Position numbers and translations under genes: made by a program
Source: a phage
DNA: 64,000 bases
Assembly (NCBI GenBank): GCA_025830695.1
Contig: GCA_025830695.1_4111.2
Reading direction: 5' to 3' (one strand)
The notes under the pieces: generated by a model
Seen by the model: the letters and a program-made list of their open reading frames with translations, nothing else
Told to the model about the DNA's origin: nothing
The model's database searches: none
In this document: one piece after another, positions 7,346-24,914 of the stretch
How positions within the stretch are numbered: the stretch's first letter is position 1
Layout of the letters: the number at the start of each line of letters is the position of its first letter

Positions 7346-7365
7346 CCACCAGCTTGTGCTGGTGG
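7346..7365. other. palindromic hairpin made of two inverted Chi octamers
   Basis: CCACCAGC-TTGT-GCTGGTGG; GCTGGTGG at 7358-7365 (plus) and 7346-7353 (minus). Confidence 0.55.
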
Positions 7366-7529
7366 GTTCCCTCTAACAGTATTCAGTACTACATGATAGT
7401 CTTCATCCTCCTAGGGTAACATAGTGAGGGCTATGATGGCAGTACTGAATACTCCCTTTCAAAAGATAGATCTATGGTATAGTACTGACGGATTTTGGGC
7501 GTAGTTACCCTGGATGGATTTTGGACGTA

Positions 7530-7680
7530 GATATGTCTAGCCCTCCAGAAGTCTGGAAGTAAAGATGGCTATCCATCTAGACGGCTAAACGGCTAGATTT
7601 CTGGATGGCTAGACGTTTGGACGGCTAAACGGCTAGATGGTTACACGTCTGGAAGTATAGACGGCTAAATCAAAATTTTA
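7530..7680. repeat. iteron-like direct repeats (GGCTA[AG]ACG / CTGGAAGT / TCTAGACG)
   Basis: about 8 copies of GGCTA(A/G) and repeated ACGGCTAAACGGCTAGAT within 150 bp of non-coding DNA. Confidence 0.5.
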
Positions 7681-7890
7681 TTTTGTTTTTTCCAATAGTT
7701 CCCCTACCGCGTGGGGATAGTTTCCCCGCAGTATCTGGAGTTAGATTTTTCTGAATCTGGAATCATTATCTTATAAACTGGGGGCAATGTCAACGGTCTG
7801 GACGGATATTTTTAAAAATTTTTTCAGTACTGAATTTTGGGCGTAACTATGCACCCGGTGGGCTTGAGTCTTTCTCGACTTGATGGAACT

Positions 7891-7918
7891 ATTATACAGT
7901 ACTGGAAAAATAAAGCAA
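7891..7918 (-). promoter_or_regulatory. minus-strand sigma70-like promoter (TGCTTTA -35 region, TATAAT -10)
   Basis: reverse complement reads TTGCTT-16bp-TATAAT, then conserved leader ATCAAGTCGAGAAAG...CCCACCGGGTGC. Confidence 0.4.
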
Positions 7919-8106
7919 TACCCTGGAAGCAAAAAAGTTTTAATTAATTTGCTTGCTATCCTGGGCCGGACTATGGTACTATATTTCAGTACTGAGAAAG
8001 TGCGTTTACCTGCTAGGGTGCGGGAGTGTATCCTTTTTTTATATCTTGAATTTTGGGCGTAATTCCGCACCCCCTGGGGTATCCGCTTTCTCGCGTCTAT
8101 GTAGTA

Positions 8107-8134
8107 ATTATACGCTTTTTCAGGATCAAGTCAA
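8107..8134 (-). promoter_or_regulatory. minus-strand sigma70-like promoter
   Basis: reverse complement TTGACT-16bp-TATAAT; leader contains CCCCAGGGGGTGC. Confidence 0.4.
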
Positions 8135-8414
8135 TACCTAAAAACAAAATAATTGAAAATAATTTAACGCGTTTAAACGGCCCGTAAAGCCCTGGAATGA
8201 TTGGAATGGTGCAAATGTATAGCTTAGGTGTATTAATGCGTTAGAATGCGTCTGAGGCCGTTTTACGGGGTATCGGGATGATTTGGTGGATTGATTCAGT
8301 ACTGAATAATAGTACTCCTATATAGAAAGATAGTTCCCCTGGATGGTTGCAGTACTGAATGACAGTTCCCCTATATAGAAAGAAAACTATTTTAAAAGTA
8401 CATGTAGAAAGTAC

Positions 8415-8473
8415 TTGCAAACTATGTTTAAAGGCGTATAATGTTTTACATCGAGAGCGGGAACTCTTCCCGC
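8415..8473 (+). promoter_or_regulatory. early promoter + 5-prime hairpin cassette
   Basis: TTGCAA 8415-8420, 16 bp, TATAAT 8437-8442; hairpin GCGGGAA-CTC-TTCCCGC 8457-8473. Confidence 0.7.
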
Positions 8474-8497
8474 TACACTTTAAGAGAGATTAATACG

Positions 8498-8860
8498 ATG
8501 GCGACTCAAATCACTAAAATCATGCTTAACCTGGTAAACTTCCGCGAAGAGATGAAAGGTCTTCCGGCTGAAACTGTAAAAATTCACATTGCAGCTTATC
8601 GGGAACTTATTGCAATGTTACCGCTTAAGCGTGAACAATACGCCGCTACTTTGATGCTTGATTCAATGATCCATGTAATGATCTCAAATGATTTGACGAT
8701 GGTTTATCAGTACATGGGCGAAAATTTCGCGGTGTGTAGTAAACCAGTACCAGGGATGGCAACTACTGAGGAATTGCACGGCTTAAACTTAAAACAAGAT
8801 GCATGGGATAATATGCCTCGTTTCCTGGTATGGGCTGACAGTGGCAAAATTTACAAATAA
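8498..8860 (+). CDS. hypothetical early protein (120 aa)
   Basis: track ORF 8441..8860 begins inside the -10 box; start moved to ATG 8498 (MATQITK). Confidence 0.65.
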   Translation: MATQITKIMLNLVNFREEMKGLPAETVKIHIAAYRELIAMLPLKREQYAATLMLDSMIHVMISNDLTMVYQYMGENFAVCSKPVPGMATTEELHGLNLKQDAWDNMPRFLVWADSGKIYK

Positions 8861-8874
8861 GTTTAATAAAGTAC

Positions 8875-8933
8875 TTGCAAACTATGTTTAATGGCGTATA
8901 ATGTTTTACATCAGGTGGGGAATAGTTCCCCAC
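8875..8933 (+). promoter_or_regulatory. early promoter + 5-prime hairpin cassette
   Basis: TTGCAA 8875-8880, TATAAT 8897-8902, hairpin GTGGGGAA-TAG-TTCCCCAC. Confidence 0.7.
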
Positions 8934-8953
8934 TATATAAGAGGATTAAAAAA

Positions 8954-9193
8954 ATGGCTAAATCAAAAATGTTCTTAGGTCACAAAAACAAAACTCATTG
9001 GAATGTAAGCCTTTGGATTAATAACGATGAATCATTATACCGGTTGGCCCAGGACTTTATTAACGATAGCACTAATCGCAATGATGCGGCCCGTCATATG
9101 ATGTTATTTTTAGAACAGACTGGACAAGATAAAACACCGGACGGATTCAAATATAGCACTACTGCGATCCGTGCGGCGATGGTTGGAATGTAA
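8954..9193 (+). CDS. hypothetical early protein (79 aa), paralog of 10192..10431
   Basis: start moved to ATG 8954 (MAKSKMFLGHKNKTHWNVSLWINN); SD GAGGA. Confidence 0.65.
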   Translation: MAKSKMFLGHKNKTHWNVSLWINNDESLYRLAQDFINDSTNRNDAARHMMLFLEQTGQDKTPDGFKYSTTAIRAAMVGM

Positions 9194-9212
9194 TAGAATT
9201 TATTTAAAGTAC

Positions 9213-9241
9213 TATCATTTTTTGCGATAGTACTTTATAAT
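9213..9241 (+). promoter_or_regulatory. possible promoter (good -10 TATAAT, weak -35)
   Basis: AGTACT...AGTACTTTATAAT 9236-9241. Confidence 0.35.
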
Positions 9242-9278
9242 AGTGTTTTATTCATACACCAACGATAAGGGCAACAGC

Positions 9279-23518: not shown

Positions 23519-23579
23519 TTGCATTGTAGTTAGATTAACGTATAATGTTTTACATAGAGCGGGGGAATAGTTCTCCCGC
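23519..23579 (+). promoter_or_regulatory. early promoter + 5-prime hairpin cassette
   Basis: TTGCAT 23519-23524, TATAAT 23541-23546, hairpin GCGGGGGAATAGTTCTCCCGC. Confidence 0.7.
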
Positions 23580-23597
23580 CAGTCCGGGAGATACACC

Positions 23598-23864
23598 ATG
23601 AACACTATCGAAATCACTATCAATGCACACGTATACGACAACGTAGTACTGCAAACTACTATGACCGCTAATGATACCAGTACTTTGCGGAATACCGTTG
23701 TAAGTGCTGTATGTGCTGCAATCGGTGATGTAGCCCTGGAAAATGCAGAACACATCAACAACGGTTTCACTATGTGCAAACGTGATAACGCAAAACATAT
23801 CATCTTAGAAGGTTACGGCGGTGTAGAATATAATCTTTATATGAAAAAAGTACTTGCAAAGTAA
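23598..23864 (+). CDS. hypothetical protein (88 aa)
   Basis: ORF track; SD GGGAGA. Confidence 0.65.
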   Translation: MNTIEITINAHVYDNVVLQTTMTANDTSTLRNTVVSAVCAAIGDVALENAEHINNGFTMCKRDNAKHIILEGYGGVEYNLYMKKVLAK

Positions 23865-23910
23865 CTAAAACAAAGTATAATGTTTTGCATAGGGGGAGAT
23901 ATCCTCCCCC
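23854..23910 (+). promoter_or_regulatory. early promoter + 5-prime hairpin cassette
   Basis: TTGCAA 23854-23859, TATAAT 23876-23881, hairpin GGGGGAG-ATATC-CTCCCCC. Confidence 0.7.
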
Positions 23911-23928
23911 ACTAAAAGGAGTACTAAA

Positions 23929-24153
23929 ATGGCTAACTTTGATGAACTGATGCGGGAAGTAGCTAACCTGGCAGAAGAGAAGAAATCATTCGATTCTATC
24001 TATAACACCGCTCATCGTGATTCAGTACTGGCATGTACTCAGGATCAAAAAGATGAACTAATCGCCACATATCATGAAGCATGGAAGTACTACCGCCAAT
24101 GGGAGAAAGAAGAAAGCGAGTCTACCATCAACGGCATCAATAATCTAATCTAA
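23929..24153 (+). CDS. hypothetical protein (74 aa)
   Basis: ORF track; SD AAGGAG. Confidence 0.65.
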   Translation: MANFDELMREVANLAEEKKSFDSIYNTAHRDSVLACTQDQKDELIATYHEAWKYYRQWEKEESESTINGINNLI

Positions 24154-24171
24154 AGTTTTATTTCAGTACTA

Positions 24172-24200
24172 TTGACATAGCTTGATAGTACTGATATGAT
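24172..24200 (+). promoter_or_regulatory. promoter
   Basis: TTGACA 24172-24177, 17 bp, TATGAT 24195-24200. Confidence 0.55.
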
Positions 24201-24228
24201 AACTTTACTAACTACAAGGGGAAACATC

Positions 24229-24486
24229 ATGGAACAATTCACACAATATCGGGTAAATCCTCAAGCTATGGCCTACGTAGAAGACCATAAAACGTTACCA
24301 GTACTGCAACCAGTTAAAGGCCATATCTATCGTGCGATGGCGTGGAGTACTGCCCAGGATGGCTATAAAACCGTTGCCGTTGGTATGTACTGCGGTAATG
24401 GTGAATGGTTTGATCCAAATAATCCGGTAGCAATTAACAGTACTGAAAAAATGAAATGGGCCGACTACATCGAAGATATTTCATAA
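24229..24486 (+). CDS. hypothetical protein (85 aa)
   Basis: start moved to ATG 24229 (MEQFTQY); SD AAGGGGAAA. Confidence 0.6.
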   Translation: MEQFTQYRVNPQAMAYVEDHKTLPVLQPVKGHIYRAMAWSTAQDGYKTVAVGMYCGNGEWFDPNNPVAINSTEKMKWADYIEDIS

Positions 24487-24493
24487 AAACTAT

Positions 24494-24554
24494 TTGACAG
24501 TACTAACCAGTAATGTATAATGTTTTACATAGAGCGGGGGAATAGTTCTCCCGC
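24494..24554 (+). promoter_or_regulatory. early promoter + 5-prime hairpin cassette
   Basis: TTGACA 24494-24499, TGTATAAT, hairpin GCGGGGGAATAGTTCTCCCGC. Confidence 0.7.
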
Positions 24555-24576
24555 CAATAGTTTGGAGTAAAACATT

Positions 24577-24777
24577 ATGTCTATCGCTCTCGCCCTGGTT
24601 GAAGTACTGAAAGAAGCTAAAGCCAACCTTATCGATGTACAGATTAAGGAATTGCAAAATGGTTTAATCGGCTGTACTTGTACCGCTGGTGGAGCGGCAG
24701 ACTATCGAGAACACGAATCACTAGAATCGTTGGTCCGGTATCTTACAATCATCGTAGAAGATTGGAGAATCATCTAA
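24577..24777 (+). CDS. hypothetical protein (66 aa)
   Basis: ORF track. Confidence 0.65.
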   Translation: MSIALALVEVLKEAKANLIDVQIKELQNGLIGCTCTAGGAADYREHESLESLVRYLTIIVEDWRII

Positions 24778-24793
24778 CAAAAAAGAATAAAAA

Positions 24794-24871
24794 AGGGATT
24801 GACTCCGGTCAGTCCCTTTGCTATTATATACGCATAGACAAAAACTAGCCCACAGGGTGCATAGGTGTATC
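24794..24871 (+). repeat. element R copy 4
   Basis: GGGATTGACTCCGGTCAGTCCCTTTGCTATTATAT...AGCCCACAGGGTGCATAGGTGTATCT; Chi octamer follows at 24907. Confidence 0.65.
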
Positions 24872-24906
24872 TAAAATATATAGTTAATAACGGTGAGTAA
24901 CTATCT

Positions 24907-24914
24907 GCTGGTGG
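24907..24914 (+). other. Chi octamer GCTGGTGG just downstream of element R copy 4
   Basis: exact octamer. Confidence 0.5.

Follow-up and report, generated by a model that had tools for sequence, protein, structure and literature searches.

The DNA considered here, a stretch of 64,000 nucleotides from a phage (NCBI GenBank assembly GCA_025830695.1, contig GCA_025830695.1_4111.2; hereafter the window), raises the question of why the octamer GCTGGTGG, which in E. coli is the Chi recombination hotspot that attenuates the RecBCD nuclease, should be crowded into one part of a phage genome. Eleven exact copies were found in the window, nine on the plus strand and two on the minus strand, all between positions 7346 and 24914, and the other 44.5 kb (outside 6769-26274) hold none on either strand. 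Dinucleotide-preserving shuffles predict 0.39 copies per 64 kb, and a count of 11 was never attained in 100 of them, so that the excess over chance claimed by the initial annotation of this DNA was confirmed by the shuffles and, as detailed below, by Markov models and by the ranking of octamers of the same composition. The seven coordinates that it gave (7358, 13274, 17237, 19618 and 24907 on the plus strand, 7346 and 13212 on the minus strand) are exact. Its plus-strand count of five was correct for the sites listed and incomplete as a total, since 18699, 21693, 23108 and 24685 had been missed and there are nine in all; these four lie within small open reading frames (ORFs) that are annotated coding sequences (CDS) in the related phage vB_Ec-M-J, and its description of the sites as all intergenic is therefore restricted to the five plus-strand sites listed. 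We argue that the octamers are probably a selected, cis-acting RecBCD/Chi array confined to the direct terminal repeat of the phage, which would limit degradation of the chromosome ends and load RecA for repeat-by-repeat recombination.

Location of the Chi octamers in the terminal repeat

The window is 90-99% identical to jumbo myoviruses of the genus Asteriusvirus (121Q, PBECO4, G17, vB_Ec-M-J, fEgEco12 and others), and its closest relatives were all isolated on E. coli; Sharanji, another Asteriusvirus phage, grows on K-12. We infer that it belongs to an Asteriusvirus jumbo coliphage of the 121Q/PBECO4 group whose host is E. coli; the host Chi, identified in this way through the hosts of relatives, would be the canonical GCTGGTGG, as had been assumed from the outset. 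Chi differs by host, being GCTGGCGC in Pseudomonas and AGCGG in Bacillus. The E. coli octamer is active in E. coli, Klebsiella and all tested enterics, for which bioRxiv 10.1101/2021.07.08.451572 refers to Schultz & Smith 1986 and McKittrick & Smith 1989.

Direct terminal repeats (DTRs) of 20,993 bp and 20,668 bp have been reported for fEgEco12, by PhageTerm and restriction digests (PMC13070987), and for Sharanji (PMC11895373), respectively, and the record of vB_Ec-M-J annotates a DTR of 21,525 bp (1-21525). Both DTR boundaries of vB_Ec-M-J and fEgEco12 align to the window with 94-97% identity, which places a single collapsed copy of the repeat in the window (Table 1). The Chi cluster covers positions 578 to 18,146 of the 19,506 bp of this predicted repeat; as delimited by homology, it coincides with the DTR, the DNA found at the two extremities of the packaged chromosome, which is where a role in linear-DNA protection or in recombination would be expected. 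Chi density in the DTR reaches 0.56/kb versus ~0.2/kb in E. coli, for which bioRxiv 10.1101/2021.07.08.451572 gives one Chi per ~5 kb.

For a genome-wide count, the whole genome of vB_Ec-M-J was assembled as a complete relative. Its DTR holds nine plus-strand and two minus-strand Chi in 21.5 kb (0.51/kb) versus 14 and nine, mostly on the coding strand, in the other 335.5 kb (0.069/kb). The whole-genome octamer frequency proposed as a check on the initial annotation is thus elevated in the terminal repeat, where 11 of the 34 Chi fall in 6% of the genome (binomial P = 3e-6). Outside the DTR, Chi is present at about twice the expectation of Markov models of order 3-5 (5.6-7.6 on the plus strand, 4.5-6.3 on the minus strand).

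Table 1. Chi octamers and associated features of the window (relatives: orthologous sites in the Asteriusvirus conservation set)
Feature	Position	Strand	Remarks
DTR, single collapsed copy	6769-26274	+	19,506 bp; predicted from boundary homology to start and end of relatives' DTR
Non-coding leader of the DTR (~1.7 kb)	6769-8440	+	First annotated CDS of relatives at DTR position 1689-1760
Back-to-back Chi palindrome, CCACCAGC-TTGT-GCTGGTGG	7346-7365		Perfect; 8-bp arms, 4-nt loop
Chi, left arm of palindrome	7346-7353	-	578 bp from left genome terminus
Chi, right arm of palindrome	7358-7365	+	In non-coding leader; palindrome 578-597 bp from left terminus
Chi, second on minus strand	13212-13219	-	Intergenic, DTR position 6444, downstream of terminator 13166-13187
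Chi	13274-13281	+	Intergenic; kept in 5/5 relatives
Terminator-like hairpin, AGCCCACTGGTTAACGCTGGTGGGCT	17222-17247	+	Fold -9.2 kcal/mol, z = -4.3; Chi is the 3' arm
Chi	17237-17244	+	3' arm of the terminator-like hairpin 17222-17247; kept in 5/5 relatives
Chi	18699-18706	+	In ORF 18600-18794, frame GCT GGT GGA (Ala-Gly-Gly); 5/5 relatives
Chi	19618-19625	+	Intergenic, between hairpin 19530-19557 and next promoter; 5/5 relatives
Chi	21693-21700	+	In ORF 21655-21897, frame xxG CTG GTG Gxx; 5/5 relatives
Chi	23108-23115	+	In ORF 23051-23323, GCT GGT GGA; 4/4 aligned relatives
Chi	24685-24692	+	In ORF 24577-24777, GCT GGT GGA; 3/4 aligned relatives, lost in 121Q
Chi, right-most	24907-24914	+	Intergenic, ~1.36 kb from right DTR boundary; 5/5 relatives

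Selection on the exact octamer

Within 6769-26274, Markov models of orders 0-4 predict 0.11-0.34 copies on the plus strand and 0.03-0.09 on the minus strand, where nine and two are observed; the Poisson probability of nine plus-strand copies against an expectation of 0.34 is 1e-10, and both orientations are enriched about 25-fold. Chi ranks first among the 168 octamers of the same composition in the DTR, with nine copies versus a maximum of two and a mean of 0.23, and it is the top anagram word in every DTR or repeat region examined, including those of distant lineages. The enrichment is that of the exact word: nine plus-strand Chi stand in the DTR against two copies of all 24 one-mismatch neighbours combined, the corresponding figures in the non-DTR DNA of vB_Ec-M-J being 14 and 129. 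Furthermore, all three Ala-Gly-Gly tripeptides in ORFs of the DTR are encoded by GCTGGTGG, for which codon usage predicts 0.126 each. Contexts are unrelated from site to site (ORFs in two frames, a terminator-like hairpin, the non-coding leader, spacers between terminator and promoter), and inspection of the flanks across the window sites revealed no common consensus. Two sources of such a pattern were considered and dismissed: Chi as part of a longer repeated element, of which neither the flanks nor the octamer ranking show an extended consensus, and host-derived DNA, since a megablast of the DTR against 5,426 E. coli genomes returned no match. Taken together, these figures indicate that it is the exact octamer that is under selection.

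Conservation and recurrence in other jumbo phages

The conservation set consisted of five Asteriusvirus repeats that are 89-96% identical where alignable. Chi is intact in 51 of the 53 orthologous site-by-genome comparisons, the value for all octamers being 56-78% identical, and substitutions amount to 1.65% inside Chi versus 6.45% in the flanks of ±50 nt (Fisher p = 9e-6, not corrected for phylogeny). Totals per repeat remain steady across relatives at 8-10 on the plus strand and 1-2 on the minus strand, although TH47 and fEgEco12 share one lineage-specific gain and 121Q has another gain together with two losses. The minus-strand Chi at 13212 is kept in 4/5 relatives, 121Q having CCGTCAGC instead.

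More distant jumbo phages were compared by means of the kinase ORF of the repeat, which proved the better marker for the homologous region; the DksA-like ORF, tried as a marker in RaK2, landed in a non-repeat tRNA region with background Chi (2 in 50 kb). The DTR of Klebsiella phage fENko-Kae01 (19,736 bp by PhageTerm; ~28% average nucleotide identity to fEgEco12) contains 12 plus-strand and two minus-strand Chi, followed by one on each strand in the next 30 kb, and that of Klebsiella phage Muenster (Alcyoneusvirus; annotated at 20,030 bp) contains seven and one, followed by none in the next 25 kb. In Erwinia phage Kaldavass (1-18274) and in XbC2 (OP292654.1, 1-17500), the repeat is a homologous region of 17.5-18 kb that is putative, being delimited by homology rather than by defined termini; it holds 8/1 Chi in Kaldavass, with three Chi in the 27 kb beyond, and seven on the plus and two on the minus strand in XbC2, with none in the next 12.5 kb. 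Many of the Chi of these lineages lie at positions that are not homologous to those of the window, several sites of fENko-Kae01 being located in promoter spacers. By these counts, Chi enrichment recurs independently in four jumbo-phage lineages, confined to the repeat and in the same orientation (9:2 in the window phage, 7:1 to 12:2 in the other lineages). The first Chi from the right boundary lies at 0.4 and 1.1 kb in two PhageTerm-defined repeats and at ~1.1 kb in XbC2, whose boundary is estimated, and the nearest correctly oriented Chi to the left end lies at 0.2-0.6 kb in three of the four lineages.

XbC2 is reported on Xanthomonas vesicatoria, yet carries an enteric-type Chi array. It was discarded as a non-enteric negative control: it is ~87% identical to Erwinia phage Kaldavass and shares the enteric Chi. 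Either its natural host is enteric or the Chi array has persisted after a host jump.

Chi palindrome and hairpins

The initial annotation described two Chi-Chi hairpins, of which one stands. The pair at 7346-7365 is a perfect palindrome that folds as single-stranded DNA at -10 kcal/mol (z = -4.6); both arms are intact in 5/5 Asteriusvirus relatives, and the same architecture recurs at 484-503 of the fENko-Kae01 DTR with a TTAA loop and unrelated flanks. The pair 13212/13274, whose arms lie 54 nt apart, was rejected as a hairpin: it folds like shuffled sequence (z = -0.37), with no significant structure, and one arm is mutated in 121Q. Minus-strand Chi occur at positions similar to that of the 13212 site in the repeats of fENko-Kae01 (7013) and Muenster (6454).

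As a rho-independent terminator, 7346-7365 has the stem and lacks the T-run, the stem being followed by GTTCCCTC on the plus strand and by CATAATGA on the minus strand; it is therefore not a canonical terminator, and a terminator scan did not call it. A scan of IMG/VR for CCACCAGCNNNNGCTGGTGG returned 46 loci, among which the sole jumbo phage was 121Q itself, the others being unrelated contigs, many of high G+C; it was set aside as uninformative because the word is expected by chance in high-G+C contigs. In the terminator-like hairpin 17222-17247, Chi pairs via G·T wobbles with a degenerate inverted version of itself, CCACTGGT, in the 5' arm, so that one strand only carries Chi. A homologous hairpin is found at ~19338-19363 of fENko-Kae01 (…AGGCCACTGGTTAACGCTGGTGGCCT…), with compensatory changes in the stem and with loop and Chi kept.

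Other features of the repeat and adjacent DNA

G+C content is 37-39% within the DTR versus 31-35% outside. The repeat carries ~45 small plus-strand ORFs, most with their own sigma-70-type promoter, and a promoter scan of the DTR gave 104 promoter-like sites versus 67 expected, with 10 perfect consensus matches. Because most ORFs have such a strong promoter, the DTR would be an early region read by the host polymerase. Pfam and PHROG scans of the 45 ORFs (8441-26122) detected DksA-like, GNAT, ParE-like and kinase domains, among them a DksA/TraR-type zinc finger at 17850-18107, a GNAT acetyltransferase, a ParE-like toxin domain (Pfam E = 6e-11) and a protein-kinase-like ORF at 21872-22513 that is conserved in the repeats of the four jumbo-phage lineages. 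In Muenster, the annotation of the repeat includes genes for a YafQ-like toxin and a YeeU-like antitoxin.

Besides the Chi palindrome, the leader holds a terminal hairpin and iteron-like repeats. The former is the short hairpin GGCAGAGGAAGTCTGCC at 6773-6789, 4 nt inside the left DTR boundary, which is the physical genome end in relatives. The latter, within 7480-7670, consist of GACGGCTAAA direct repeats at 7580, 7620 and 7660 (40-bp spacing) with GGCTAGA and GGATGG motifs, and are candidates for an origin of replication or for the pac site recognised by the terminase. The palindromic hexamer AGTACT occurs in 127 copies in the DTR (6.5/kb) versus 130 in the other 44.5 kb (2.9/kb), and its role may be that of a regulatory or UP-like element specific to the phage, or of a site related to modification or restriction. 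CAGTACTG is found 33 times in the DTR, often within or just upstream of promoter regions (…AAAGTACTTGCA…). A 28-nt hairpin, AAAGGGATTGACTCCGGTCAGTCCCTTT, is identical at 19530-19557 and 24792-24819, with a variant at 15833-15860; its stem includes a TTGACT -35-like hexamer and is followed by GCTATTATAT, an arrangement in which a terminator-like hairpin may occlude a promoter or be coupled to it.

Immediately after the DTR, at 26342-28240, G+C falls to 31-34% and a run of ORFs of ~70 aa with overlapping stop and start codons lacks individual promoters. Before the right repeat of vB_Ec-M-J (333206-350767), 14 paralogues of ~1.1 kb each are arranged in tandem on the minus strand and annotated as regulator of chromosome condensation (RCC1-like); of the nine minus-strand Chi that this genome has outside its repeat, three fall in this array.

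Discussion

The interpretation offered by the initial annotation, linear-DNA protection and/or recombination, is supported by the sequence data, and the question becomes how a Chi array might operate within a terminal repeat. RecBCD recognises Chi only when approaching from its 3' side, that is, from a double-stranded end to the right of 5'-GCTGGTGG-3' (PMC12315714). The virion chromosome would be a linear molecule that begins and ends with the same ~20 kb, and host RecBCD could load on these ends after injection. From the right end, RecBCD would move leftward through the nine plus-strand Chi, meeting the first at 1.36 kb; from the left end, it would move rightward and meet a minus-strand Chi at 0.58 kb, in the palindrome, then another at 6.4 kb. 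Upon recognition, RecBCD would cease degrading the 3' strand and load RecA onto a 3' tail still made of repeat sequence, and the loss would thus be confined to redundant DNA. Because the filament would be repeat sequence, it would find a homologous target in the other copy, and invasion of that copy, in the same or in a sister genome, would yield circles, concatemers or recombination-primed replication. Being a cis signal, such an array could act ahead of all phage gene expression. We infer the action of RecBCD on these ends, as well as which end is exposed and the outcome of recombination.

The DNA state and the gene content of the family bear on this proposal. fEgEco12 DNA is cut as predicted by all restriction enzymes used (PMC13070987), and gross base modification is therefore unlikely to mask Chi. 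The search for a RecBCD inhibitor proposed with the initial annotation yielded none that is recognisable in the DTR ORFs or in the vB_Ec-M-J annotation: the Gam, Abc2 and gp5.9 families are absent among the 45 DTR ORFs in the Pfam and PHROG scans, and the vB_Ec-M-J annotation lists no end-protector or Gam product.

Several points weigh against a RecBCD/Chi array of this kind. One of the small early DTR proteins could be a novel RecBCD inhibitor, since most of them are without assigned function. vB_Ec-M-J encodes, outside the repeat, a UvsX-like recombinase, UvsY, SbcCD-like gp46/47, endonuclease VII and SSB, a T4-like recombination set that could make host RecBCD dispensable, or needed only very early. 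The 9:2 orientation bias matches the compositional expectation, itself 4:1 (0.34 versus 0.09), and for that reason the bias alone fails to identify the right end as the exposed one. The minus-strand excess is weak, with two sites only, and is tied with that of another anagram word. Muenster has no Chi near its left end, its first minus-strand Chi being at 6.4 kb, and the phages compared all belong to, or group with, phages of enteric hosts.

Among other explanations, the array could serve protection only, as a sacrificial stretch that attenuates the RecBCD nuclease at the ends and leaves the making of concatemers to UvsX/UvsY/gp46-47, Chi recombination being unneeded; as a side effect, fewer RecBCD-dependent CRISPR spacers would be acquired from the phage. 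The full T4-type recombination module of the family speaks for it, as does the fact that, with multiple tandem Chi, RecBCD is more likely to recognise one of them before it arrives at unique DNA; according to Levy 2015, as summarised in bioRxiv 10.1101/2021.07.08.451572, fewer spacers are acquired on the 5' side of Chi. We nevertheless consider this reading, spacer effect included, unlikely: Chi just inside unique DNA would be equally protective and there is none for >35 kb, whereas restriction of Chi to the repeat is what inter-copy recombination needs; the recombination proteins are encoded outside the early repeat and would thus be absent when the ends first appear; and Subramaniam and Smith argue that Chi 'protection' in vivo requires RecA (bioRxiv 10.1101/2021.07.08.451572). 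Chi might, alternatively, act later in infection, either on the free right-hand end that terminase creates when it first cuts a concatemer, by analogy with lambda cos, or on rightward replication forks that start in the leader and break. The plus orientation is active for an end lying to the right, by the same logic as at the cos of lambda and LLS phages (PMC12315714), and the iteron-like repeats of the leader could be an origin or a pac site. Yet phage functions and host shut-off may have removed RecBCD activity by then, and a right-end-only model leaves unexplained the near-terminal minus-strand Chi and palindrome of Asteriusvirus and fENko-Kae01, and likewise the unpaired minus-strand Chi 216 bp from the start of the XbC2 record. 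Later action thus appears a still more doubtful account.

Finally, the octamers could have no function and be a by-product of base composition, of codon usage (GCT GGT GG) or of repeated promoter/terminator cassettes. The repeat does have a higher G+C content and abundant repeated intergenic elements, three of the coding Chi share the codons GCT GGT GGA, and outside the repeat most Chi are on the coding strand. Against this stand the expectation of at most 0.34 under Markov models up to order 4, the lead of Chi over all 167 anagram words and all one-mismatch neighbours, flanks without a shared consensus, a substitution level about four-fold lower inside Chi than in the flanks, independent enrichment in four lineages at non-homologous positions, and a DTR that contains no E. 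coli-derived DNA. This explanation is, in our opinion, highly improbable and close to refuted.

The nearest known systems are P1 and the LLS-type lambdoids. The 50 Chi of P1 are concentrated at the terminal redundancy, and circularisation of this phage requires both RecBCD and RecA (Subramaniam & Smith, bioRxiv 10.1101/2021.07.08.451572). Like P1, P7 and D6, the window phage would have linear virion DNA with multi-kb direct terminal repeats and a Chi density above that of E. coli where the ends fall, and the role that we propose, RecBCD/RecA recombination between repeats that circularises the injected genome, is the one proposed for P1. P1 is a temperate phage with headful packaging, permuted ends, ~47% G+C and 31 Chi on the top strand versus 19 on the other, unlike the window phage, a virulent 350-kb jumbo myovirus with UvsX/UvsY, 38% G+C, an exact non-permuted repeat and Chi at 9:2. 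RecBCD dependence has been shown experimentally for P1; for the window phage it is a prediction from the sequence. LLS-type lambdoids, which lack a Rec module, carry 20 versus 3 Chi, with a co-oriented cluster at the right end (Zheng et al. 2025, PMC12315714). Many co-oriented Chi at a genome end, in the orientation that would be active for RecBCD entering from the right (a bias that composition also predicts in the window phage), and the lack of a recognisable RecBCD inhibitor are shared with the window phage, whereas LLS phages have cos ends and are without terminal repeats and phage recombinases. In the window phage family, UvsX, UvsY, gp46/47-like proteins and endonuclease VII are present and enrichment is limited to 6% of the genome; the published rule 'no Rec module - high Chi' does not describe it, because of these recombination proteins. 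The locus would work like an LLS/P1 Chi cluster, yet it does not fit the definition of the LLS class.

The same problem, a linear genome that enters a RecBCD+ cell with its double-stranded ends exposed, is addressed by lambda Gam, T7 gp5.9, P22 Abc2 and the T4 gp2 end protector. These are trans-acting proteins that block or hijack RecBCD; the Chi array would, in contrast, be a cis DNA signal, present before expression and leaving RecBCD active. T5, another virulent coliphage, resembles the window phage in its exact DTR, which is 10.2 kb long and carries pre-early genes transcribed by the host polymerase. It was not retained as a parallel: its DTR (NC_005859.1) has two plus-strand Chi only (8127, 8689) in ~10 kb and the next 40 kb none, and these sites are too few, none being oriented for the left end, which enters first.

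Within the searchable library, our literature search found no paper that connects Chi or RecBCD with the DTRs of Asteriusvirus or RaK2-like phages, and no published rec-mutant plating data for this phage group. Terminal Chi clusters that recruit RecBCD are already known from P1 and LLS-type lambdoids; for jumbo phages they are, as far as we found, apparently undescribed. What is unusual here is the exact long repeat that confines the enrichment, the occurrence in a virulent jumbo phage that owns a recombinase, and the conserved near-terminal Chi palindrome. It is tempting to go further and to view the long exact repeats of RaK2-like jumbo phages as 'Chi-armed telomeres', conserved cis-acting devices that turn RecBCD, within the first minutes and before any phage protein, from a nuclease into an enzyme that circularises the genome or primes replication, a tentative idea that we hold with considerable reserve. 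If true, the phage would also escape abortive infection systems that guard RecBCD (of the retron Ec48 type), RecBCD being used rather than inhibited, and the palindrome, at ~0.5 kb from the left terminus, would serve as a dedicated end-stop for both directions.

If the RecBCD/Chi array proposed here is real, growth defects would be expected on recB, recC and recA hosts and phage fitness would be Chi-dependent, which is relevant to therapy phages. The host Chi could in turn be read from over-represented, co-oriented octamers in phage terminal repeats. The idea of Chi-recruited RecBCD would extend from temperate P1 and small lambdoids to virulent 350-kb jumbo phages, and owning a T4-type recombinase would not remove the selection for Chi. 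It would also provide a functional reason for placing the earliest genes in a long repeat, the first-entering end carrying both the take-over genes and the defence against nuclease.

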